A DNA stretch of 64,000 nt from Minisyncoccota bacterium (GTDB lineage: Bacteria; Patescibacteriota; Minisyncoccia; Phycocordibacterales; Phycocordibacteraceae): assembly GCA_041658485.1 (NCBI GenBank), contig JBBAAE010000003.1:10300-74299 (forward strand), given 5' to 3'. Shown here piece by piece: positions 1,684 through 64,000 of this stretch (its first letter is position 1; the number at the start of each line of letters is the position of its first letter). Below the pieces are notes generated by a model. That model saw nothing but the letters and a program-made list of their open reading frames with translations. It had not been told where the DNA came from and made no database searches. Both the position numbers and the translations under genes were made by a program.

Positions 1684-1971
1684 ATGTCAGGAAATATAAA
1701 AGTAGCCAGTGGAATTATACTCGCAGCTGTTGTTCTCGGTGGCGGTTTTTATTGGTATGCATCAACACGCCCAGCGCCAGCCCCTGTTGCTGTAGCTCCT
1801 ACCGAAACACAGCCTACGGTTCCTCAAGGACCGACGCTCGCAACAGGCGCTGACACCTCAGACGCTTCATTAAGTCAGGATATTGCATCGGTAGACGCAG
1901 ATATGACCGCAATGAATGGAGACACAACGGCAATTGATGCAGGTCTCAACGATAAGGCAGTTGCACAGTAA
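1684..1971 (+). CDS. Hypothetical membrane-anchored protein with a Pro/Ala/Thr-rich linker
   Basis: ATG start, N-terminal TM helix (IILAAVVLGGGFYWY), then a low-complexity extracytoplasmic tail. Confidence 0.4.
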   Translation: MSGNIKVASGIILAAVVLGGGFYWYASTRPAPAPVAVAPTETQPTVPQGPTLATGADTSDASLSQDIASVDADMTAMNGDTTAIDAGLNDKAVAQ

Positions 1972-1999
1972 ATTTATTTTTCTAATAATCTTCTACAGT

Positions 2000-2839
2000 A
2001 TGAAAAAAATCACTCCGATATTCCTTTCTCTTATGGCATTCGCAGTTCTTCTGTCCCCAGCTTTTGCGTTTGCTGAGGAGGCGGTAACTACCAGCGTGAA
2101 CGCGGGCGCCACTGTAACTCTACCTGCTGTCACAAAAACGGAAGTAAAAGCAACTGCTACACAGTCAGCTGCATTAATGCGAGGCAAGGATCGCGGAAAC
2201 CAAGAAATTGACAGAAGAGTCACAAACCTTAATGCTCTCATCGCTCGCGTACAAGGAATGAAAAATCTTTCCGACGCGGACAAGGCTTCTATTGCGGGAA
2301 CTTTGACAGCACAGGTGAATGCACTGAATGCACTTAAAGCTAAAATTAATGCAGATACTGATCTTGAAACATTGAAGGGTGATGTGAAATCCATTACTGA
2401 TTCGTATCGCATCTACGCACTTATTATTCCTCAGGGAGGAATAATTACTGCGGCTGATCGTATTGTGACAATTTCAACCACGATGCAACTCATCGCGGTA
2501 AAGTTTGAAGCACGCATTGTGGCGGCCGCTACTGCGGGAAACGATGTTACTGCGGTTCGTGTAGTCCTTGAAGAGTACAAAGCAAAACTTGCAGATGCGA
2601 GCTTGCAAGCACAAGCAGCGGTGAACGCAATCGTTACCCTCGTTCCTGATAATGGTGATGCTACAAAAAAAGCTGCAAATACAAAGGCACTTAAGGATGC
2701 CCGAGCTCAAATTGTAGTTGCACAGAAAGCTTTACAGACAGCACGTAAGGATGCTGACAAAATTATTGTTGCTCTCAAAGGGATGAAAGCTGCGGCGTCG
2801 ACAACGACGACTACGGAAACATCTGCTGGAGCACAATAA
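2000..2839 (+). CDS. Secreted Ala/Thr/Lys-rich alpha-helical (coiled-coil-like) protein
   Basis: Internal ATG at 2000 gives MKKITPIFLSLMAFAVLLSPAFAFA, a signal peptide with an AFA cleavage site. The rest is low-complexity, helix-forming and Ala-rich. Followed by a heptamer repeat and a terminator. Confidence 0.55.
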   Translation: MKKITPIFLSLMAFAVLLSPAFAFAEEAVTTSVNAGATVTLPAVTKTEVKATATQSAALMRGKDRGNQEIDRRVTNLNALIARVQGMKNLSDADKASIAGTLTAQVNALNALKAKINADTDLETLKGDVKSITDSYRIYALIIPQGGIITAADRIVTISTTMQLIAVKFEARIVAAATAGNDVTAVRVVLEEYKAKLADASLQAQAAVNAIVTLVPDNGDATKKAANTKALKDARAQIVVAQKALQTARKDADKIIVALKGMKAAASTTTTTETSAGAQ

Positions 2840-2842
2840 TTC

Positions 2843-2866
2843 AGGTTCTAGGTTCTAGGTTCTAGG
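2843..2866. repeat. Tandem heptanucleotide repeat (AGGTTCT)x3 plus a partial unit
   Basis: aggttctaggttctaggttctagg sits directly after the stop codon. Same 7-nt repeat family as in the minor-pilin leaders. Confidence 0.7.
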
Positions 2867-2875
2867 AATTAGGAA

Positions 2876-2905
2876 AAATCCCGACATATGTCGGGATTTT
2901 TTTTA
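2876..2905 (+). terminator. Rho-independent terminator
   Basis: Hairpin atcccgaca-tat-gtcgggat followed by T8. Confidence 0.65.
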
Positions 2906-2938
2906 TGAGTTGTTCAAAAGTTGGCGTATTATTAAGTA

Positions 2939-3118
2939 ATGTCAAAAGAAAAACTTTCATCCGCAGAGCTTAGTCGACAGGCAGAAGAAAAAGCTAAGAA
3001 AAAAAGAGATCGTACAAAAACAAGAATTAAGGCAGCTAAGGCAAATGGTTCTGATTCTCGAGAGGCAGGTAAGAAGATCGGAAGCCGAAAGGGTAGAGGT
3101 TATAGTAAGGGTAGTTAG
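2939..3118 (+). CDS. Small highly basic hypothetical protein (59 aa)
   Basis: ATG..TAG ORF MSKEKLSSAELSRQAEEKAKKKRDRTKTRIKAAKANG..., below the ORF-track length cutoff. Sits between a terminator and a convergent gene. Confidence 0.3.
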   Translation: MSKEKLSSAELSRQAEEKAKKKRDRTKTRIKAAKANGSDSREAGKKIGSRKGRGYSKGS

Positions 3119-3763
3119 TTAGTGGGCGAGGGTTATTGCAATGACTTCAGAAGCGCCAGCTCCTATGAGTGCACGCTTTGCATCAGAGAGTGTGGTGCCG
3201 GTCTCGGCGACATCGTCTATAAGAATGACATGCATGCCACTTACTTTTTCAGGACGAATCACGGAGAATGCACCAGCAATATTTTTTTCTCGCTCGGACT
3301 TTAATACTTCAACCTGACTTGCCCTGTCTTCTCGCCCGAGTACATCAGGGGCATAGGTAACCTCCGCTTCAAGATGGGGAAGTGTAGCTAGAGTGATTCT
3401 CTCAACTTGGTTATAGCCTCGAGATTTTAGGCGAGCGCTTGAGCTGGGGATGGGAACGAGAAGTGGATTTCGCCATCCTCCGAGTGTTTTTTTGTCCGCA
3501 AGTATTTGAATGATTTCATCGGCCAAAATTCTACCCAGTGCAGGAAGCGGAGCCTTTTCGCCACGATATTTTATGGCACGGATGAGTGCGCGAACTTTGG
3601 GATTTCTGTACGGAAACAGAGCTACAATCCACTGTTTATCACGGTGGATCATTGGGTGAAGAAGCTCTGCCAGCGTTTCTTCTGAAAGTGAACGGGCAAT
3701 AGCTGACTCACTAGATATAGGAATCAATGCATCAAGAATCCTCCGGAAAATGTGACCAATCAT
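3119..3763 (-). CDS. ComF-family protein (phosphoribosyltransferase domain)
   Basis: C-terminal PRTase motif VILIDDVAETGTTL and ComFC-like length. No N-terminal zinc ribbon. Confidence 0.6.
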   Translation of the reverse strand: MIGHIFRRILDALIPISSESAIARSLSEETLAELLHPMIHRDKQWIVALFPYRNPKVRALIRAIKYRGEKAPLPALGRILADEIIQILADKKTLGGWRNPLLVPIPSSSARLKSRGYNQVERITLATLPHLEAEVTYAPDVLGREDRASQVEVLKSEREKNIAGAFSVIRPEKVSGMHVILIDDVAETGTTLSDAKRALIGAGASEVIAITLAH

Positions 3764-3890
3764 GATATACTTGGAAACATTGTACTCCCTGACTTAGACT
3801 TGATTCCACTCTATGGAGAACGCTACGGGAGACATAGGGATTCATCATGATAATTATTAGTCTTTGTACCCAGCGTTCGTAGTCTCTCGT

Positions 3891-5003
3891 ATGGATTTCT
3901 CTCTCAGCACACTGTCTGAAAAATTTAAACAGCTCGCTTCATCTTTTAGTGTGAAAGATGGTGAGAGTGTTCTTGGTATTGATATCGGAACTTCATCCAT
4001 CAAAATTGTGCAGGTAAAGGAGGTGAAGGGGAGTGCTGTCTTGGAGACATACGGAGAGATTGCACTTGGTCCATATGCAAATGCCGAAGTGGGACAATCG
4101 GTGATGCCTCCACCTGAAAAAATTGGGGAAGCTTTGAAAGACGTGCTCCGTGAGGCAAACGCGACAGCAAAAATTGGCGGATTCTCGGTACCACTTTCTG
4201 GAAGTCTCATTAATGTCATCACACTCCCTACAAAAGATCATGCCGATTTGGCAACTATGATTCCAATAGAGGCTCGCAAATATATTCCTGTGCCAATTAC
4301 AGAAGTGGCGCTCGACTGGTTCGTGATACCTGAGGAAGAAGCGAAATTTTTAAGTCCACAAGGGGGTGTTCCAAAATCAGATCACTCAACCGATGTGCTT
4401 CTTGTCGCGATCCACAACGCAGTCCTTGCTAAATATCAGCTTATTACAGAAGCGGCCGCTATTACACCGCGGTTTTTTGAGGTAGAGCCATTTAGCATGG
4501 GGCGAGCTTCTTATGAACACACCACTGCGCCTGCAATGATTATTGATATGGGAGCATCATCGACTCGTGTATATATTATTGAATTTGGCATTATCGATGT
4601 TTCGCACACCATAGGTCGTGGCGGACAAGATTTAACGCTCTCACTGGCAAAGTCAATGGGCGCTACATTTCAAGAGGCTGAAAATATAAAAAGGGATAAA
4701 GGTTTGTCTGAATCTGAGGTGGGATCCGCGGCGCTTGACTTCATATTTGCTGAAGCCCGTCGTATTTTGTTGACGTACCAGCGTAAAGAAGGGAAAGCGG
4801 TATCGCAAGTAGTTCTTGTAGGAGGAGGAGCTTCTTTGAAAGGTTTGAAGGAGGTAGCTTCGCGTTCTTTTGATGCACGGATTGTCATTGCTTCTCCGTT
4901 TGAAAAGTTAGCTGCACCCGCGTTCATTTCTGATGTACTCAAGGGCGCTGGTCCATCCTTTGCTTCCGCTGTCGGACTCGCACTTCGTGCGTTGCATCAA
5001 TAA
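3891..5003 (+). CDS. pilM: Type IV pilus assembly ATPase-fold protein PilM
   Basis: Actin-like fold signature VLGIDIGTSSIKIVQV. ATG at 3891 is preferred over the TTG at 3864. First gene of the pilMNO cluster. Confidence 0.8.
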   Translation: MDFSLSTLSEKFKQLASSFSVKDGESVLGIDIGTSSIKIVQVKEVKGSAVLETYGEIALGPYANAEVGQSVMPPPEKIGEALKDVLREANATAKIGGFSVPLSGSLINVITLPTKDHADLATMIPIEARKYIPVPITEVALDWFVIPEEEAKFLSPQGGVPKSDHSTDVLLVAIHNAVLAKYQLITEAAAITPRFFEVEPFSMGRASYEHTTAPAMIIDMGASSTRVYIIEFGIIDVSHTIGRGGQDLTLSLAKSMGATFQEAENIKRDKGLSESEVGSAALDFIFAEARRILLTYQRKEGKAVSQVVLVGGGASLKGLKEVASRSFDARIVIASPFEKLAAPAFISDVLKGAGPSFASAVGLALRALHQ

Positions 5004-5054: not shown

Positions 5055-5130
5055 AGCGTTTAGGGAAAAACTTTTTGTATTAGCTTTTGCTGTTCACACT
5101 AACCCCTAATCACTAACCCCTACCCACTAG
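5055..5130. repeat. REP-like intergenic repeat built from TTAGGG/CCCTAA-type units
   Basis: agcgtttaggg ... cactaacccctaatcactaacccctacccactag. Related copies at 11601, 55131, 56849 and 58038. Confidence 0.6.
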
Positions 5131-11603: not shown

Positions 11604-11697
11604 GGAAGCAGGGGATAGCGTTTAGGATATAGGGGTTAGGGAAGAGCCCTGAGTTAGAAGTTCCCCTAAACACTAAACGCTACACCCTAACCCCTGC
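11601..11697. repeat. REP-like imperfect-palindrome repeat (TTAGGG/CCCTAA-type units)
   Basis: gcaggggatagcgtttaggatataggggttaggg ... cccctaaacactaaacgctacaccctaacccctgc; the two halves are inverted copies. Fills the pilA-pilD intergenic region. Confidence 0.65.
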
Positions 11698-11704
11698 TCT
11701 CTGT

Positions 11705-12550
11705 ATGCTTGAAGTACTTCTCCCACTTTTTGTGTTTGGTATAGGGCTATGCGTTGGGAGTTTTGTTAATGTTCAAATATTTCGCTTTGGTTTTGGCGAG
11801 CATGCTCGTTCTCGTTCATGTTGTATGGCATGTGACATGCCAATCTCTTGGTATGACCTGATTCCTATTTTCTCATATGTCGCACTGTCAGGCAGGTGTC
11901 GTGCATGTGGAAGCGCGCTTTCAACTCAATATCCATTGATTGAGGGTATAGTTGGATTTCTGTTTTTGGTAGCATTTTTAATAATGCCACCAGTCTTATC
12001 GCTTTGGTCAATTCTGGCATTCACCATGCTCCTTGTTTTTATTGCATCTTTGGTGGCCTTAGTTGTATACGACATACGACACACTTTAGTGCCTATGCCT
12101 TTTATCTATATGCTCGTAGGTTCTGCACTTCTCGCATCTATTTCACAAAGTTTGTTTAGCGATTCGTTTTTTCCACTTATTGATTCTCTTATTGGAGGGG
12201 CAATCTTGTTTGGTGGTTTTTTCGGTATTGTACTTGTTACCCGTGGGCGAGGTATGGGCGTAGGTGATGCGTATGTTGTTGGTGCGGCCGGCCTCTTGCT
12301 CGGACTGTTTCGAGGTATCGAATCAGTTATGTTCGGAGTCTGGTCTGCAACAATTGTTTATTTGATAATTTTTCTTTTATCCTCTATTCATTCAAAAAAA
12401 AGATTGTTGCCTCACGGTGCTCGGGTTACCATGAAAACAGAGTTGCCGTTCGTGCCATTTCTTGCTTTTGGCATTGGCCTCGCTCTCTTCACGACGCTTT
12501 CACCACTCTCACTTGGGTCGTGGCTCGCCAATCTATTATGGTTTCAATAA
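11705..12550 (+). CDS. pilD: Prepilin peptidase PilD (A24 family)
   Basis: N-terminal CxxC...CxxC zinc-binding domain (CMACDMPISW...CRACGSAL), multi-TM body with conserved Asp-containing loops. Confidence 0.85.
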   Translation: MLEVLLPLFVFGIGLCVGSFVNVQIFRFGFGEHARSRSCCMACDMPISWYDLIPIFSYVALSGRCRACGSALSTQYPLIEGIVGFLFLVAFLIMPPVLSLWSILAFTMLLVFIASLVALVVYDIRHTLVPMPFIYMLVGSALLASISQSLFSDSFFPLIDSLIGGAILFGGFFGIVLVTRGRGMGVGDAYVVGAAGLLLGLFRGIESVMFGVWSATIVYLIIFLLSSIHSKKRLLPHGARVTMKTELPFVPFLAFGIGLALFTTLSPLSLGSWLANLLWFQ

Positions 12551-13158
12551 AAAAAAAGCCTTCAGCTTTCAGCCTTCAGCTTTCAGGGGGGATTAAAAAA
12601 TCTTTTGTCGTTCGTGGTTTAACGCTCATTGAGCTTCTTGTAGTGATGGGTATTTTCTCTATCATTTCGCTCGTTGTTCTTGCTAATCACTCTCGCTTCA
12701 ATAGTTCAGTTCTTCTTGGAAGTCTTGCATATGATATTGCGTTATCGATTCGTGAAGCACAGGTGTATGGCTTGTCTGTAAAACAATATGGTAGTAATTT
12801 CCAAGTTGGATACGGTCTCCGTTTTGCCGGTGCATCCTCGTATACATTTTTTGTTGATACAAATGCAAATAAACGCTATGACAGCGGGGTTGATTCAATT
12901 GTGCAGACATTTTCAATTAGTCGTGGCCACACCGTGAAAAGTTTTTGCGGTATCACGGCGAGTGGAGTTCAGGAATGTTCTCCGAGCGGGATTGATCATT
13001 TAGATGTTGTCTTTTTTAGACCTGACCCAGATGCTCTATTTTCTTCCAATACTTCTACCGTGTATTCAAGTGGTCAAATAGTAGTTACATCTCCGACAGG
13101 GGAAACGCGCACCGTTAAAGTTGCTTCAACGGGTCAGATTTCGGTAACAAATCCATGA
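12538..13158 (+). CDS. Minor pilin (pseudopilin 1) with a long leader
   Basis: Leader MVSIKKKPSAFSLQLSGGIKKSFVVRG|LTLIELLVVMGIF. The leader is encoded by (GCYTTCA)x4 tandem heptamers. Overlaps the pilD stop. Confidence 0.7.
   Translation: MVSIKKKPSAFSLQLSGGIKKSFVVRGLTLIELLVVMGIFSIISLVVLANHSRFNSSVLLGSLAYDIALSIREAQVYGLSVKQYGSNFQVGYGLRFAGASSYTFFVDTNANKRYDSGVDSIVQTFSISRGHTVKSFCGITASGVQECSPSGIDHLDVVFFRPDPDALFSSNTSTVYSSGQIVVTSPTGETRTVKVASTGQISVTNP
12559..12586. repeat. Tandem heptanucleotide repeat inside the pseudopilin-1 leader coding region
   Basis: gccttca gctttca gccttca gctttca (4 units, 28 nt). Confidence 0.75.
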
Positions 13159-13844: not shown

Positions 13845-13847
13845 TTT

Positions 13848-14414
13848 ATGAAAAACAACCAGCTTTCAGGTTTCAGCTTTCAGCTTTCAGGTTCTAGACA
13901 GGCGAACACAATTCGTGCTTTCACATTAATTGAAACATTTGTTGCAATTACCGTATTGTTAATTTCTCTCGTCGGACCTCTTTCAATTGCGGCACAATCT
14001 CTTCGTCTCGCATATTACGCACGGGATCAAGTGACTGCTTTTTATCTTGCACAGGAAGCGGTGGAATATGTGAGAGCCGAGCGCGATCAAAACTATCTTG
14101 CTAATGCGCCGTGGCTTACTAATCTTGGTGACTGTGTGGGGGCGTCATGCGTGGTTGATTTTCCTCGCTTTACCCACAGTGCATGTGGCGTTCTGAGTAC
14201 CTGCCCTCCTATATATATAAGTAGTGCAACAAAATTATACAATCAGGACGCAACGAGCGGGCCTGCATCAGCCTTTACTAGAGTCCTTTCTATTACGCCA
14301 GTTGTAGGCAGTGTTGATGAAGTAATAGTGAAGGTGAGGATCTCTTGGGTGTCGGTTGGAATCAATAGATCATTTCAGGTTACTGAGCATCTTTTTAATT
14401 GGGCAGGACCATGA
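13848..14414 (+). CDS. Minor pilin (pseudopilin 3)
   Basis: Leader MKNNQLSGFSFQLSGSRQANTIRA|FTLIETFVAITVLLISL. Leader encoded by 5 tandem heptamers. Confidence 0.7.
   Translation: MKNNQLSGFSFQLSGSRQANTIRAFTLIETFVAITVLLISLVGPLSIAAQSLRLAYYARDQVTAFYLAQEAVEYVRAERDQNYLANAPWLTNLGDCVGASCVVDFPRFTHSACGVLSTCPPIYISSATKLYNQDATSGPASAFTRVLSITPVVGSVDEVIVKVRISWVSVGINRSFQVTEHLFNWAGP
13861..13895. repeat. Tandem heptanucleotide repeat inside the pseudopilin-3 leader coding region
   Basis: agctttc aggtttc agctttc agctttc aggttct (5 units). Confidence 0.75.
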
Positions 14415-14947
14415 GTATGAAAGAAAAAACAGGTTTCAGGTTTCAGGTTTCAGGTGCGAGTTCATTAACTCCAAAAGCCTTTTCTCGTACCTCACGGGGA
14501 TTCACTCTTTTGCTCGCAGTATTGATTAGTAGCATACTCATTGCTATTGGTTCGGCAATTTTTAATATTCTTTCAAAAGAAATTATTCTTTCGTCGTCAG
14601 GTCGTGAGTCACAATTTGCTTTTTTTGCAGCTGACAGCGGAATCGAGTGCGCTCTCTATTGGGATACAAAACAGAATGCATTTGCAACAACATCAGCACT
14701 CACACAAGTTGCCTGTGGAGGCGGTTTGGCAGACTTAACGCGCACCTCAGGGGGCACTCTACTCCGACCAACATACACAACGGTGTTTTCTTTTCCGCTT
14801 GACGGAGGAGAGGCTAATCCTTGTATTACCGTGACGGTTGCCAAAACCTTTTATCCAACCGAAACAATTATTGCCTCGCAAGGTTACAACACATGCGTTA
14901 CGACGAATCCGCTCCGTCTTGAGCGCGCCATTCGAGTACAGTATTAA
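14411..14947 (+). CDS. Minor pilin (pseudopilin 4)
   Basis: MSMKEKTGFRFQVSGASSLTPKAFSRTSRG|FTLLLAVLISSILIAIG. ATGA overlap. Leader contains (AGGTTTC)x3. Confidence 0.7.
   Translation: MSMKEKTGFRFQVSGASSLTPKAFSRTSRGFTLLLAVLISSILIAIGSAIFNILSKEIILSSSGRESQFAFFAADSGIECALYWDTKQNAFATTSALTQVACGGGLADLTRTSGGTLLRPTYTTVFSFPLDGGEANPCITVTVAKTFYPTETIIASQGYNTCVTTNPLRLERAIRVQY
14431..14451. repeat. Tandem heptanucleotide repeat inside the pseudopilin-4 leader coding region
   Basis: aggtttc aggtttc aggtttc (3 perfect units). Confidence 0.75.
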
Positions 14948-33640: not shown

Positions 33641-34261
33641 ATGGCTACTTTAGAGACGCTCAACTACTTGATTGCACTTGGTACCGTTCTGATGCAAGTG
33701 GCAACGGTTGCGCTTCTAGTTATTTTTTTCTTTAGGAAAAGTGCGTGGGCGCTACGTATTACAAAAATCGTTAGCGATTCAGGGCTGTGGTTTTCACTAC
33801 TTCTAGTCATAGCAGGTACGGCATTAAGTCTTGTATATTCAGAGTATTTTGGCATTTTGCCATGCGGACTTTGTTGGGTTCAAAGAGTATTTCTCTATCC
33901 GCAGGTTGTCTTGTTTGCGCTCGCTACATGGAAGAAAAGCGAACTGCTTCGCTTTTCTTCCGGTGGCGAAGCCAAGCGCCAATATTCGCAAAGCGAAAAG
34001 GTGCTAGGAGGGACGAATGATCACTTTATTGCAGATTACTCAATTGTGCTTTCGGTGTTAGGTGGGGTAGTTGCTCTCTATCAACATTACTTGCAAATGG
34101 GTGGTACGAGCACATTGCCATGCCCAGCGTCTGGCGTTGCGGATTGCGCAAAGAGATTCCTCTTTGAGTTTGATTACATTACATTCCCACTCGTTGCATT
34201 TTCCTCATTTGCACTCCTTTTTGTCATCATGCTTTTTGTACGACAAAATCGAACTGCGTAA
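33641..34261 (+). CDS. Disulfide bond formation protein B (DsbB/BdbC family)
   Basis: 4 TM helices with Cys pairs in both outer loops (CGLCWVQR; CPASGVADC). Confidence 0.65.
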   Translation: MATLETLNYLIALGTVLMQVATVALLVIFFFRKSAWALRITKIVSDSGLWFSLLLVIAGTALSLVYSEYFGILPCGLCWVQRVFLYPQVVLFALATWKKSELLRFSSGGEAKRQYSQSEKVLGGTNDHFIADYSIVLSVLGGVVALYQHYLQMGGTSTLPCPASGVADCAKRFLFEFDYITFPLVAFSSFALLFVIMLFVRQNRTA

Positions 34262-43035: not shown

Positions 43036-43508
43036 ATGACGACATTGATGACATTCAGATGCCCGCAATGAATCCTAGTGGTAAATCAGCAGCTCTCGTA
43101 GAGGACGGCTTATCTCCAAAAGAATTTGAAAAAATAGTTGCTGATGCTTTTCTTTTAGTCCCAGAAAAATTTAGCTCAAAAGTGAGTGCTAGCGCTATTG
43201 TAATCGAAGATGCACCGAGTGATGCCGTGCTCCGTGAGCAGAATGTTCCAGAGAATTATACGCTTTTCGGTTTGTATAAGAGCACAGAGACTGGTGATGG
43301 GGTAGTTATATTTCGTAATCCTGTTTTGCATGCTGCCGCTCACGAAGCTGGGGTTGAAGTGGAATGGGGTGCTCCGACCGAGCCAATGAAGCGACGTCTT
43401 CGTACCATTGTGCGCGACATTATTTGGCATGAAATTGCACGCCACTTTGATATGGATGAATTTGAAATAGATGCGCGTGAGGAGACATCAACAAACGAAT
43501 TTAAGTAA
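43032..43508 (+). CDS. Hypothetical acidic protein (possible zincin-like fold)
   Basis: 158 aa. Has HEIARH, a HExxxH variant that does not match the canonical HExxH zinc-binding motif. Function uncertain. Confidence 0.35.
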   Translation: MNDDIDDIQMPAMNPSGKSAALVEDGLSPKEFEKIVADAFLLVPEKFSSKVSASAIVIEDAPSDAVLREQNVPENYTLFGLYKSTETGDGVVIFRNPVLHAAAHEAGVEVEWGAPTEPMKRRLRTIVRDIIWHEIARHFDMDEFEIDAREETSTNEFK

Positions 43509-43512
43509 AAAA

Positions 43513-43542
43513 AGCTGTCAGGTTTCAGTTTCCGGCTTTCAG
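43513..43542. repeat. Degenerate heptamer repeat x4, same family as the pilin leaders
   Basis: agctgtc aggtttc agtttcc ggctttc, directly after the stop codon. Confidence 0.6.
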
Positions 43543-55130: not shown

Positions 55131-55195
55131 ACTAGGGTATAGGGTTTAAATTTCCCTACACCTGATACCCTAAACCCTAATCACTAATCACTAAT
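55131..55195. repeat. REP-like repeat (TTAGGG/CCCTAA-type units)
   Basis: cactagggtatagggtttaaatttccctacacctgataccctaaaccctaatcactaatcactaa. Confidence 0.6.
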
Positions 55196-58001: not shown

Positions 58002-58037
58002 ATGGTCCCTTCGGACCCGATGAAGCATCGCCTATTC

Positions 58038-58063
58038 GCTAAACCCTAACCACTAAACCCTAG
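58038..58063. repeat. REP-like repeat (CCCTAA units)
   Basis: ctaaaccctaaccactaaaccctagc just upstream of htpX. Confidence 0.55.
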
Positions 58064-59854: not shown

Positions 59855-59939
59855 GGAGGCGTCGGATAGCGGTTTATTCCACCACCTTGGAAAGGTGGCG
59901 TACCGAAAGGTACCGAGAGTTCGAATCTCTCCGCCTCCG
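59855..59939 (+). tRNA. tRNA-Ser (anticodon GGA)
   Basis: Acceptor stem GGAGGCG/CGCCTCC, D-arm, anticodon stem CCACC/GGTGG with loop TTGGAAA, long variable arm GTACCGAAAGGTAC, T-arm GAGAG-TTCGAAT-CTCTC, discriminator G. No encoded CCA. Confidence 0.85.
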
Positions 59940-59992
59940 CAAAATAATGAGCCCAATGTGTAAGCATTGGGTAATTATATTTTTGCGTGAAG

Positions 59993-60008
59993 GCGGAGAG
60001 ATTCGAAG
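59993..60008. repeat. Inverted partial copy of the tRNA-Ser T-arm/acceptor region
   Basis: ggcggagagattcgaa is the reverse complement of ttcgaatctctccgcc. Confidence 0.6.
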
Positions 60009-60161
60009 TGAGCATCGGGACCCGAGCCAGCAGGCGAGGGTGATGCGAGGTGGAAGAAACACGAACTGCTTCATGTTTCTTCCGGTTTCGCAAAGCGAAA
60101 ATGGCTTATGCCGTAGGCAAGCCATAGGTGGGCAGGCGGAGACATGAGCGACGGTGAATGT

Positions 60162-60197
60162 CGAGCGCTTAGCCGAATCTCTCCGCCTCCGCAAAAT
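60162..60197. repeat. Direct repeat B, a copy of the tRNA-Ser 3' end (att-like)
   Basis: cgagcgcttagccgaatctctccgcctccgcaaaat. 24 nt are identical to tRNA positions 59922-59945, including the 5 nt past the tRNA end. Confidence 0.8.
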
Positions 60198-60251
60198 GGA
60201 CACCTATCCGTAGAGGGATTATGCGCACTAAATGCTATCCTGTTCCTATAT

Positions 60252-61385
60252 ATGATTCACGTTCAACAGCGATCATGGACTGAAAAGGAGGGCTGGTCTA
60301 CGCCAGATACTGATTTGCCCGAAGAACCCCAACTGGTTTTTGTGTTTGGCGATCGCAACTTTGTGGCGAAGGCTGAGCTCTTTCAGCAAATTCGGCAGTT
60401 TTACCCTAAGGCGTATATATGCACCAGCTCAACGGCTGGAAATATACTTGGTAGCACGGTGAGTGAAGAGTCGGTGACCATCTCTGCCGTGTACTTTGAA
60501 AAAACAAATGTATCATTTGTTCAGACAACAATAATAAATCAATTTGATAGTCAGAATGTCGGAAAGAAACTCGCGGAGTTCCTACCTACCGAAGGGCTCG
60601 TGCATTCCTTTGTTCTCAGCGACGGTTTGTCGGTCAACGGATCAGAAGTGGTTGCGAGCATCAACAAACATTTGCCCACTACAGTGACGGTGACAGGTGG
60701 CCTTGCGGGAGATGGTAGCCGTTTTGCGCAGACGGTGGTGGGATGCAATGTTGTCCCACAAAGCAACCAAGTTGTCCTCGTGGGCTTGTATGGCTCTTCA
60801 CTCCGAGTTGGGTATGCATCTCGTGGTGGATGGACTGCAACCGAAGATGCATACATCGTAACGCGCTCTGAGAATAATGTGCTGTACGAACTCAATAATG
60901 AGCCGGCACTTGATGTATACAAAAAACTCCTCGGTGACGCCACGGCACAACTGCCAAGCTCCGCACTCCTCTTTCCGCTTCAGCTCACACTAAAAGACGA
61001 GGGCACGGTTGTCCGCACCATTCTTGGTGTTGACGAGAAGAGTAAGAGTATGACCTTTGCGGGGAATATTCCGCAAGGCGTTACCGCGCATCTCATGCAT
61101 GCGAGCATTGAAGAGCTTATTGCAAGTGCGCACAAAGCTGGCGAAGAAGCATCAGTGCCTACGGCACCGGTACAGTTTGCACTCTTGGTAAGCTGTGTTG
61201 GTCGGCGTCTCGTTCTCAAAGAAAAAGCTGTTGAAGAGGTACGCGCAGTGCACGACGCGCTTGGTCCGCAAGCAGTGGTGCACGGTTTCTACTCGTACGG
61301 AGAGTTGTGTCCTAGCAAAGAGTCAGGAGTGCGCTGTCTACTTCACAATCAGACGATGACCGTTACTACATTCTCGGAAATGTAA
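60252..61385 (+). CDS. FIST-domain sensor protein (FIST N and C domains)
   Basis: Start taken at ATG 60252 downstream of repeat B. LVFVFGDRNF...YICTSSTAGNI (FIST_N). C-terminal VHGFYSYGEL matches the FIST_C ending GFYSYGEI. Confidence 0.65.
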   Translation: MIHVQQRSWTEKEGWSTPDTDLPEEPQLVFVFGDRNFVAKAELFQQIRQFYPKAYICTSSTAGNILGSTVSEESVTISAVYFEKTNVSFVQTTIINQFDSQNVGKKLAEFLPTEGLVHSFVLSDGLSVNGSEVVASINKHLPTTVTVTGGLAGDGSRFAQTVVGCNVVPQSNQVVLVGLYGSSLRVGYASRGGWTATEDAYIVTRSENNVLYELNNEPALDVYKKLLGDATAQLPSSALLFPLQLTLKDEGTVVRTILGVDEKSKSMTFAGNIPQGVTAHLMHASIEELIASAHKAGEEASVPTAPVQFALLVSCVGRRLVLKEKAVEEVRAVHDALGPQAVVHGFYSYGELCPSKESGVRCLLHNQTMTVTTFSEM

Positions 61386-61394
61386 GGCGAAAAT

Positions 61395-61425
61395 CGAGCG
61401 CTTAGCCGAATCTCTCCGCCTCCGC
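61395..61425. repeat. Direct repeat C, a copy of the tRNA-Ser 3' end
   Basis: cgagcgcttagccgaatctctccgcctccgc matches 30 of 31 nt of repeat B (the first 30 nt of B). Starts 10 bp after the FIST stop. Confidence 0.8.
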
Positions 61426-61556
61426 CGAGATTTTTAACGAGTGCAACGATTATAAAAATCCAAGTGTACTTGCTTCTAGCAAGGTACCACCAAAATTCGG
61501 AATTTAAATTTCCACAAAAATATGGTTGGCGCGAAATCTGAGTTAGAATAGGACAC

Positions 61557-61967
61557 ATGCATCTTGAGTACATCAACGGAATAATTTTTCTGGCATCTCT
61601 CTGTGGTCTTGCGGTTGCAGTGTATATTCGCTATAAGAAAACACGGAAAGAAATACTTGTGTGCCCGATACATTTTAATTGCGAGGATGTAATACATAGT
61701 AAGTATGCAACTGTGCTCGGTGTCCCTATAGAGATTATTGGTCTTTTCTATTATGGATTTCTTGCGCTCATATATGGGACAGCAATAATGATTCCAGAAA
61801 TTATCACCGCCCCGATAGGTACAGGGCTCACTTTTGTCACCTCTCTCGCGATGGTGTTCAGCATATATTTATTATTTGTCCAAGTGATACTGAAGCAGTG
61901 GTGTGCGTGGTGCCTTCTATCTTTCGTATCATCTGTCGTCATTTTTTATTGTGTTGTTTTGGTGTGA
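61557..61967 (+). CDS. VKOR-family protein (vitamin K epoxide reductase-like thiol oxidoreductase)
   Basis: 4 TM helices. Loop Cys pair and VLGVPIEIIG motif (VCPIHFNCEDVIHSKYATVLGVPIEIIG). CxxC in the last TM (QWCAWCLL). Confidence 0.6.
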   Translation: MHLEYINGIIFLASLCGLAVAVYIRYKKTRKEILVCPIHFNCEDVIHSKYATVLGVPIEIIGLFYYGFLALIYGTAIMIPEIITAPIGTGLTFVTSLAMVFSIYLLFVQVILKQWCAWCLLSFVSSVVIFYCVVLV

Positions 61968-61980
61968 GTGAGTCTTCGAA

Positions 61981-62013
61981 CTTAGTTACGAGAGCCGAAT
62001 CTCCGTCTCCGCC
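61981..62013. repeat. Direct repeat D, a degenerate copy of the tRNA-Ser 3' end
   Basis: cttagttacgagagccgaatctccgtctccgcc, compared with tRNA gagagttcgaatctctccgcctccgc. Confidence 0.65.
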
Positions 62014-62075
62014 CGAAGAAAAAAGTATCGAAGATAAATCGGTAACTAGACTCCTAAGCTCTCTCGCTCATATAC

Positions 62076-63446: not shown

Positions 63447-64000
63447 ATGAGTACAAACACAAAAGATACAACTCGCAGCCTTCAGGCTAGAGATATGTTT
63501 GTTGAACAGGTAGGGGAGGAAGGTTGGGGATACATTAAAACTATTATAGGGATTGTACGAGAGCCAATTTTAGTGCTGGGTAAGGACTTTCGTGTGATTG
63601 TGGCGAATGAGCCTTTTTATCAGACATTTCAAATTGAAGCAAAAGATGCTGAAGGAAAAATTGTCTATGGACTCGGTAACGGTCAGTGGAATATTTCTAC
63701 TCTGCACACACTTCTTGAAGATATTCTACCCGAGAACAAGTTTTTTAAAGGCTATGAGATAGCACATAATTTTCCGTTTATTGGGCATAAAGTCATGATG
63801 GTGAATGCTCGTCAGATTTATTGTAAGGAAGATACTACCTTAGCTCCATGTCCGCCGATCACACTTTTGGCAATGGAGGATGTTACAGAAATTATGGCTG
63901 TTGCTGACACGCTTGCCAAGCATGCGAATCAGGTCGAAGGTGCTCTTGTTGCACGGACCCAAAAGCTTGAATTTCATATAAAAAAATTAGAAGAAGAGAT
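63447..64000 (+). CDS. PAS-domain sensor protein (probable histidine kinase), 3' end outside the window
   Basis: ATG at 63447. PAS fold (ILVLGKDFRVIVANEPFYQTFQIEAKDAEGKIVYGLGNGQWNI) followed by a coiled-coil linker. No stop before the window end. Confidence 0.55.
   Translation, partial: MSTNTKDTTRSLQARDMFVEQVGEEGWGYIKTIIGIVREPILVLGKDFRVIVANEPFYQTFQIEAKDAEGKIVYGLGNGQWNISTLHTLLEDILPENKFFKGYEIAHNFPFIGHKVMMVNARQIYCKEDTTLAPCPPITLLAMEDVTEIMAVADTLAKHANQVEGALVARTQKLEFHIKKLEEE

Follow-up and report, generated by a model that had tools for sequence, protein, structure and literature searches.

The tRNA-Ser(GGA) locus and its repeated 3' end

The window analysed here is a 64,000-nt stretch of contig JBBAAE010000003.1 (assembly GCA_041658485.1) from a Minisyncoccota bacterium. 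Towards its right end lies a tRNA-Ser(GGA) gene without an encoded CCA (59855-59940; ARAGORN; 51.5 bits with the Rfam tRNA model), followed by copies of its own 3' end and by genes for a FIST-domain and a VKOR-family protein. We lean towards interpreting the locus as three stacked units of a family of miniature, non-autonomous elements that recombine with the T-loops of tRNA and transfer-messenger RNA (tmRNA) genes in Patescibacteria. All features of the locus described below are on the plus strand. A run of Rfam over the whole window at the gathering threshold did not list the tRNA, which we attribute to a filter effect of the larger search.

The repeated sequence, denoted arm A (59922-59945, computed repeat boundaries), is the 24-nt CGAATCTCTCCGCCTCCGCAAAAT. 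It runs from C56 of the T-loop through the acceptor 3' strand and the discriminator, plus CAAAAT, and ends 5 nt beyond the tRNA end called by ARAGORN. Repeat B (60174-60197), an orphan tRNA 3' end, is an exact 24-nt copy. Repeat C (61407-61425) matches the first 19 nt of arm A exactly, and repeat D (61996-62012) is degenerate (CGAATCTC-CGTCTCCGC, one mismatch and a 2-nt deletion). When D is aligned to B and C, CGAGAGC falls directly before it and its trailer resembles that of C. The window holds four matches to the tRNA tail with ≤ 3 mismatches, against 0.01 expected from shuffles. The tail repeats reported in a preliminary description of the locus are therefore real, including the exact B and the degenerate D; the 24-nt recurrence reported within C is present, but exact for its first 19 nt only. 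The flank shared by B and C proved larger than the 10 nt (30 nt of identity) given there, and the common stretch covers 40 nt at 93% identity (60153-60192 versus 61386-61425).

Between arm A and repeat B lies arm B (59985-60007), which is complementary, in inverted orientation, to the T-loop and to the 3' strands of T-stem and acceptor, and which was detected both as an inverted repeat and as a minus-strand match. An inverted T-arm copy had been noted before, at 59993-60008; its presence stands and its extent is corrected here. The core match of arm B (59987-60005) contains two mismatches. Arm B can pair with either arm A or repeat B. In slightly longer form the arms (59920-59948 and 59979-60007) are 83% complementary and 30 nt apart. 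Contig L001, a second assembly of the window sequence, has the identical arrangement with 100% identity over 5,688 bp, so the repeats are not an assembly accident of one contig. Both L001 and L210, a contig from a co-occurring relative in the same sample, stop in or near the tRNA-Ser(GGA) repeat region.

Units at the locus

Unit 1 (59922-60173) is a full element consisting of arm A, a terminator-like hairpin, arm B and a structured core. The hairpin, GCCCAATG-TGTAAG-CATTGGGT with a T-rich tail (59951-59985, terminator scan), lies between the two arms. The core (60008-60173) was delineated from the minimum free energy (MFE) fold, from the covariance model R1 (see below) and from shared motifs, namely GAGCCAGCAGGCGA (60024-60037), GCGAGGTGG (60045-60053), an apical GAGCGACGGTGA (60146-60157) and the right end CGAGCGCTTAGC (60162-60173); these also occur in loci L040, L048, L103 and others. 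A P2-like hairpin with the AACTGCTT loop of the family (60052-60083; inverted repeat, hairpin scan) sits within the core, not between two halves of arm B. The family order of arm B, GAGCCAGCAGGCGA, GCGAGGTGG, GAGCGACGGTGA, right end and terminal repeat is kept. Repeat B borders unit 1 on the right and opens unit 2.

The FIST gene fills the interior of unit 2 (60174-61406), whose ends match those of unit 1: the left one is arm A with CAAAAT, the right one G.GAA..TCGAGCGCTTAGC. The apical loop of the final core hairpin (GAGCGACGGTGA/ATGTCGAGCGCTTAGC/CGAAT..) is the point at which the 40-nt stretch common to B and C begins, which makes C the right end of a second unit and not a fresh copy of the tRNA tail. 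The right-end fragment at 61386-61406, part of this 40-nt repeat, consists of the 3' half of the P6 stem and CGAGCGCTTAGC, and repeat C follows directly. Unit 3 (61407 to ∼ 61995) has the VKOR gene in its interior and terminates in a degenerate right-end remnant (CGAGAGC) and repeat D (together 61989-62012, from the alignments to B and C). Judged by their sequences, C and D are right-end fragments of further units of the same element family.

Identity to the tRNA declines from B, which is exact, through C, which is exact in the tRNA part only, to the degenerate D. This is the pattern expected if new insertions at the intact tRNA push older units outward; D, the most diverged copy, would then be the oldest. 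With their start at C56, their end a few nucleotides past the tRNA, their common orientation and their divergence with distance, the repeats resemble integration footprints of the attachment-site (att) type.

A family of elements behind tRNA and tmRNA genes

The first segment had been described as a structured stretch of 220 bp without open reading frames (ORFs). It is structured but not anonymous. Sequence comparison places it in a widespread family found behind tRNA and tmRNA genes in Patescibacteria, whose members are homologous to each other and to window positions 59985-60173. We found no description of these elements in the literature searched, and the family is apparently new.

Reading away from the tRNA, a copy begins with a spacer that in many copies contains a terminator-like hairpin. 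Arm B follows, first as a short stretch that can pair with the acceptor 3' strand and then as one that can pair with the T-stem 3' strand and T-loop (..GGAAUCGAA); its two parts are often split by a hairpin, GCGAGCNAA-CUGC-UUNGCUCGC, whose two N positions covary. The remainder comprises A/C-GCCGGAGC, a variable hairpin and GCGAGGCGG, then a hairpin with an apical GAGCGACGGCGA, and the right end CGAG(A/C)G..GYGRCC, after which comes the direct repeat. The 3' end of its own tRNA is present in every copy both as a complement and, terminally, as a direct repeat, on either side of a conserved multi-helix core. Units measure 115-250 bp, or up to ∼ 1.2 kb when they contain one gene.

An exact-pattern scan of metagenomes for the P2 hairpin returned at least 120 contigs. 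Among the matches listed, 60 of 83 occurrences lie 5-72 nt behind a tRNA on the same strand, with ∼ 20 specificities represented, and 31 have a near-exact copy of the tRNA 3' end (15 nt, ≤ 1 mismatch) 100-335 nt downstream. The direct repeat is 19-78 nt long; in all copies listed it starts at C56 or G57, and it ends at or after the tRNA end, including CCA when this is encoded. The P2 pattern had no match in viral contigs, and thus no link to phages was found.

The covariance model R1, built from the family, found 12 copies in loci around HtpX genes and 105 in metagenome loci. A same-strand tRNA is present ≤ 450 nt upstream of 76 of the 96 R1 matches of ≥ 100 nt, mostly within ∼ 60 nt; the larger distances belong to second units of tandem arrays. 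Six of the 96 are at contig edges, two are behind tmRNA genes (L120 and L114) and end in a copy of the tmRNA 3' end, and others either follow tRNA-like sequences that ARAGORN missed or are chance matches in GC-rich coding DNA. The element is always on the tRNA strand.

Two loci (L108, 535-690; L064, 2055-2205) have a mirror layout, in which a copy of the tRNA 5' end (acceptor strand and D-arm) is found just 5' of the complete tRNA and is broken in the D-loop by insertion of a AACTGCTT hairpin. The layout points to a related element whose point of entry is the D-loop and which would displace the 5' fragment. On the minus strand of L117, several tRNA 5' halves, each followed by ATTTTTACCCCGTTAGA, are arranged in a row downstream of the hairpin; these are probably intron-containing tRNA genes of the kind reported in PMC13011429.

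The window contains a second copy of the hairpin module at 33927-34000, in frame within a DsbB-family coding sequence (33641-34261). It reads GGAAGAAA..CGAACTGCTTCG..TTTCTTCCGG followed by TTCGCAAAGCGAAAA, a 15-mer identical to 60087-60101, and R1 matches it at 33927-34087 with 17.2 bits. The hairpin module seems able to insert alone, even into coding sequence.

A conserved single-strand fold

RNAalifold predicts 37 pairs for 16 copies of the element, 24 of them with compensatory change. In the R1 alignment of 60 copies, 94.5% of cells are paired (69.5% in shuffles), compensatory change on both sides is seen in 34 of 37 core pairs and the covariation score is 0.572, compared with 0.159 for shuffles and 0.03-0.10 for slid controls; these values are somewhat inflated because the alignment was fitted to the model. 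The window copy (59984-60197) folds with an MFE of -106.6 kcal/mol (z = -7.8), and R1 recognizes it at 60048-60192 (21.2 bits, E = 1e-4, rough calibration).

In 31 of 35 copies the strand in tRNA sense gives a more stable fold than its complement does, by a mean of 6.2 kcal/mol (Wilcoxon p = 2e-6). Arm B is complementary to its own tRNA 3' end in 29 of the 30 copies in which the right-hand repeat has drifted, a comparison biased towards the left copy by register offsets and by two extra complementary T-loop bases. In the window, repeat B pairs with arm B in both the MFE and the centroid fold. The preliminary description had named membership of the repeats in a structured RNA gene as grounds for giving up integration. 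This has turned out to be half true, as it is repeat B that closes a conserved single-strand fold with covarying pairs, and the first segment is consequently a structured element and not cargo.

Rfam 15 gave no match to the window element at E ≤ 5 and no element match in 12 canonical loci at E ≤ 1; its only matches in the loci searched were tRNA, tmRNA, RNase P, LOOT and the fluoride riboswitch. Hammerhead, C/D-box, H/ACA-like, omega-RNA and bridge-RNA assignments were considered from the sequence and rejected, as no supporting motif or neighbouring protein gene was found. The LOOT RNA (RF03000, 75.9 bits) is at 16269-16389 of L045, a Patescibacteria contig.

Evidence for recombination in the T-loop

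Locus L135 is the decisive case for recombination at the T-loop. Here, a unit whose arms match tRNA-Gly(TCC) adjoins tRNA-Pro, and a similar copy is found behind tRNA-Gly(TCC) 1.3 kb away. At the left junction AGATAGCCCGAGTTCGATTCTC of tRNA-Pro is fused to CCATCCCGCACAG, the 3' end and trailer of tRNA-Gly; at the right junction, where the displaced 3' end of tRNA-Pro lies, the element end is followed by CGATTCTCGGCACCCCGAC and the tRNA-Pro trailer. The switch occurs within the 13 nt GAGTTCGATTCTC that both tRNAs share. Such an attL-like Pro/Gly hybrid implies DNA recombination inside the T-loop.

The cores are not tied to tRNA identity. Nearest-neighbour pairs of cores, checked by eye and by alignment, join the copy at Arg(CCG) to one at Val(CAC) (85% identity) and the copy at Ser(GCT) to one at Gly(CCC) (88% identity), and in both pairs the arms alone differ. 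Locus L204 has four tandem units of ∼ 160 nt behind tRNA-Arg(TCT), each starting at C56 and ending in ..CTGAC, three of them with identical model scores. Further arrays are present in L076, L111, L129 and L136. L064 contains a duplicated block of 78 nt, and L079 a truncated copy comprising the terminator, arm B and the first core motif only.

Orthologous sites and the search for a recombinase

We took HtpX relatives from 80 genomes and compared ∼ 58 orthologous tRNA-Ser(GGA) genes. The GroEL, LemA and HtpX genes upstream of the tRNA assign the window to Patescibacteria (Paceibacteria-like). GroEL, LemA, HtpX and tRNA-Ser(GGA) form a conserved block, and nothing 3' of the tRNA is conserved. Occurrence of the element at these sites is patchy: an element copy or partial copy is present at ∼ 12 of the 58, and no direct copy was detected at ∼ 45, including those of the closest relatives, L002 and L003. 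An arrangement fixed in all relatives, which the preliminary description had considered as a possible refutation of integration, is not what is seen. Most element-bearing sites have an exact copy of their own tRNA 3' end 120-250 nt downstream, and these tRNAs differ from that of the window. Other tRNAs in the HtpX loci (Val, Leu, Pro and Asp) show the same element pattern.

Other kinds of sequence were seen at the orthologous site. In L002 (12598-16592), which has no family copy, a large serine recombinase gene on the minus strand is located 3' of tRNA-Ser(GGA) between inverted repeats of 134 nt that are 99% complementary; the final bases of the tRNA form the beginning of the first repeat. Another pair of inverted repeats, perfect over 178 nt, surrounds a helix-turn-helix (HTH) gene and an ammonia-lyase-like gene. 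These look like invertible or mobile segments at the same hotspot. In L073 (6569-8100), genes for an HTH-domain protein and a small protein lie between tRNA-Ser(GGA) and a copy of its 3' end found 1,446 bp downstream; by eye the pair looks like a toxin-antitoxin system, and the whole like another gene-bearing unit at the orthologous site.

No ORF for a tyrosine or serine recombinase emerged from crude, non-exhaustive motif scans of the window, in agreement with the preliminary description. Its explanation, an integrase lost or out of view, does not fit the family: in ∼ 160 loci (∼ 1.6 Mb) with more than 100 copies, scans of the same kind placed a tyrosine recombinase near the element at a single locus. 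There (L122), a phage-type integrase gene is 5' of a tRNA 3' fragment and the element follows the fragment. Absence of a recombinase is the rule for the whole family, not a loss at the window locus.

Small GIY-YIG nuclease genes occur beside tRNA or tmRNA genes or element ends at L017 (9212-9517), L069 (∼ 12850-13066), L157 (∼ 4307-4546), L120, L097 and L108. The L017 gene (Pfam PF01541) lies between tRNA-Asp and a copy of the tRNA-Asp 3' end; those of L069 and L157 have a common structured leader; and the 14-nt TTAGAAACTTGACC is common to the 3' end of the L017 gene and to the right ends of the L027 and L083 elements. We treat this association as a lead only, because the window has no such gene and the loci are biased towards tRNAs.

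A model for the element and its alternatives

In the mechanism that we favour for the stacked units, a unit would carry a copy of the 3' end of its target (arm A, from C56 to a few nucleotides past the gene), usually together with its own terminator. Crossover in the T-loop would insert the unit, arm A would complete the tRNA, and the displaced chromosomal 3' end would stay at the right border, where it could pair with arm B and close the fold. Fresh insertions at the intact tRNA would displace older units outward. We suppose that a recombinase acting in trans moves the units and that, by analogy with known hairpin sites, the arm A/arm B hairpin of a single-stranded intermediate may mimic the duplex target. 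A single-stranded intermediate is proposed because ordinary att recombination between duplexes has no use for arm B and because arms A and B across a short spacer reproduce the layout of a hairpin attP. The FIST and VKOR genes may have been captured by, or swapped into, unit interiors. Serial integration, as put forward in the preliminary description, is retained in that the att-type footprints, the hybrid junction and the graded divergence all fit it; what changes is that the units belong to a miniature family that as a rule has no integrase, and that C and D are not copies of the tail in their own right.

A more far-reaching proposal is that the elements form a new mobile class: gene-less units of 115-250 nt that bring no recombinase with them, enter tRNA and tmRNA genes of any kind at the T-loop, use a self-complementary copy of the target, folded as a single strand, as their site, re-target by means of the displaced fragment and occasionally carry or trap single genes. 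We put this forward tentatively and regard it, taken as a whole, as rather unlikely.

Several observations weigh against the stacked-unit interpretation. No recombinase has been identified for the family, and for the window locus we saw neither an empty site at near-identical sequence nor an excised circle. Units 2 and 3 lack arm B and core, and could for this reason be later replacements inside resident units; the relative L210 differs at D by a replacement and not by a clean presence or absence. The R1 score of the window copy is modest, and its alignment is partly mis-registered onto the internal P2-like hairpin. Structural conservation, strand asymmetry and the persistence of arm B may point to a function at the RNA level in place.

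This last point leads to an unlikely alternative, namely that the element is mainly a functional RNA made from the tRNA strand, that the repeats are needed by the RNA and that copies spread by local duplication. Such an RNA might be a tRNA-trailer RNA with an end helix resembling the acceptor and T-stem, which tRNA-processing enzymes could trim, or a switch in which arm B pairs with the 3' end of its own tRNA or with the downstream copy. The strong covariation over 60 copies, the better folding of the tRNA-sense strand (31/35), the invariable location on the tRNA strand and the z-score of -7.8 for the window copy all speak for it, as does the retention by arm B of complementarity to the tRNA where the right-hand repeat has decayed. 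In L154, the acceptor half of arm B (GCGGGG) even fits the diverged downstream copy (CCCCGC) and not the tRNA (CCCGGC). Against it, many copies, that of the window included, have a T-run terminator-like hairpin between tRNA and arm B, which argues against simple co-transcription. It also sits poorly with the patchy occurrence at orthologous sites, the truncated 5' and 3' remnants (L079; C and D in the window) and the shuffling of cores among tRNA types, and the hybrid junction of L135 requires DNA recombination. Group I introns are both mobile and structured, and an RNA function is thus compatible with mobility.

We consider it improbable that the locus is a series of classical tyrosine-integrase islands at the tRNA, with the integrase beyond position 64000 or deleted and the 250-bp segment a deletion remnant. 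An intact tRNA with co-oriented, displaced 3' fragments that start in the T-loop is the geometry of such islands, and insertions bearing recombinases do use sites of this kind in L002 and L122. However, the segment is a conserved, covarying member of a family and not a random remnant, more than 100 copies have no adjacent integrase, and the stack appears to end at D, since the gene block beyond D is shared with relatives L210 and L211. Less probable still, and in our view very much so, is non-specific slippage, template switching or unequal crossing-over at tRNA hairpins, with FIST and VKOR as original neighbours. Unequal crossing-over could produce the identically scoring tandem units of L204 and the 78-nt block of L064, but a process of this type leaves unexplained the conserved core behind ∼ 20 different tRNAs and tmRNA, the constant C56 boundary, the Pro/Gly hybrid junction and the differing genomic positions of FIST in close relatives.

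The structured element appears to be present in many copies behind the tRNA and tmRNA genes of Patescibacteria, although their genomes are tiny. Should the element indeed move by presenting a folded mimic of tRNA genes, with no recombinase of its own, the few known systems that rely on host enzymes or on single strands (CTX/XerCD, integron attC) would extend to the commonest integration target of prokaryotes. Breaks of synteny at tRNA genes, and single genes such as FIST beside tRNAs in close relatives, would be explained, and the tRNA genes of Patescibacteria would act as integron-like platforms for gene capture. An RNA product with a role in tRNA biology would be equally new. Practical consequences are misleading annotation and broken assemblies, caused by orphan tRNA fragments and by hairpins inserted in frame; the R1 model makes the family searchable.

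Relation to known systems

Islander (PMC4383910), in its definition of islands in tRNA and tmRNA genes, describes their geometry and the displaced 3' fragments that they leave. The elements resemble such islands in target (tRNA or tmRNA genes), in the restored 3' end, in the co-oriented displaced fragment, in the T-loop crossover and in the serial fragments. At the window locus, in the family and at the orthologous sites we find the intact target with a co-oriented fragment, the start in the T-loop, tmRNA targets, a hybrid junction and sites without a copy; an integrase gene inside the island next to att was not found by the crude motif scans of the window. The differences are the unit size (115-250 bp, not kilobases), the lack of an integrase, the presence of a complement of the att site, the covarying fold and the ∼ 20 specificities within one family.

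The attP of CTX phage is a hairpin of single-stranded DNA that is recombined by the host XerCD enzymes, with dif as target. Shared with this system are the inverted, target-like arms across a short spacer, the absence of a recombinase from the element, the tandem arrays and the configuration after insertion, with both arms at one end and the displaced half of the target at the other. The layout of two inverted, target-like arms close together recurs across the family. The target here is the T-loop and not dif, and the elements contain no genes.

Integron cassettes carry attC sites, and clusters of attC without integrase exist. Like cassettes, the units are small and co-oriented, some contain a single gene (FIST and VKOR in the window; GIY-YIG and the presumed toxin-antitoxin pair in relatives), and the recombination site has kept its structure better than its sequence. 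In contrast to integrons, the units are anchored at a tRNA gene, there is no IntI or attI, the RYYYAAC/GTTRRRY cores are replaced by CGAAT.., most units are gene-less, and repeats C and D have no inverted partner nearby.

A helix that copies the acceptor and T-stem strands, here formed by arm B and the terminal repeat, is also found in tRNA-like RNAs (the tmRNA domain, YrlA, mascRNA and viral 3' structures). In the present element, unlike these, the T-loop sequence is not kept as a loop but paired, the tRNA mimicked is in each copy the adjacent one, and Rfam 15 gave no match. A miniature inverted-repeat transposable element was rejected, as the ends are not inverted repeats of each other and the target duplication has no fixed length (direct repeat 19-78 nt). 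Group I introns of Patescibacteria tRNA genes are self-splicing and located at anticodon-loop positions 35/36 (PMC13011429). Like the present element they are structured, enzyme-less, selfish and common in the tRNA genes of the phylum. The element follows a complete tRNA, is half their size or less and has no group I match, and an intron was rejected on these grounds.

Genes of units 2 and 3 and neighbouring features

The gene in unit 2 (60252-61385) encodes a protein with FIST N and C domains (PF08495, PF10442) that is 100% identical to a 377-aa Paceibacterota protein at NCBI. The VKOR-family gene of unit 3 (61557-61967; PF07884) encodes a protein found exactly on L001. Both assignments agree with the preliminary description. 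Of the FIST orthologues fetched, the two closest (82% and 70% identity) adjoin tRNAs in unrelated contexts, one beside tRNA-Glu(TTC) and an element, the other beside tRNA-Ser(TGA), and homology between these close copies is limited to the gene and ∼ 40 nt upstream. Orthologues at 60-64% identity are in a stable ComM-FIST-M23-UvrD context with neither tRNA nor element. A protein-pattern scan of Joint Genome Institute metagenomes returned no FIST relatives; a general protein search did find relatives. A possible right end plus repeat remnant 5' of the L202 FIST gene was too weak and was not used.

Beyond D, the block encoding a 148-aa protein, DUF5670 and a sigma-70 factor is common to L210 and L211. 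Comparison of the 107-nt D-containing segment (61966-62072) with L210 shows that there a 2.27-kb stretch (1785-4053), with a gene for a 694-aa cytochrome-b5/cytochrome-d1-like protein, exactly replaces it between the VKOR and 148-aa genes. The flanks are 88-93% identical at the nucleotide level.

Two repeats elsewhere in the window were also recorded. A CTAA(A/C)CCCTAA-type repeat (e.g. ACCCTAAACCCTAATCACTAA) occurs at 5096-5122, 11656-11696, 55167-55193 and 58036-58062. Two of the copies are directly 5' of the start codons of GroEL (55207) and HtpX (58067), and the repeat is a candidate leader or promoter-associated motif. A (G/C)(C/T)TTCAG heptamer occurs in runs, each after an A-rich stretch, at four positions (12543-12586, 13847-13890, 14417-14460 and 43499-43542).

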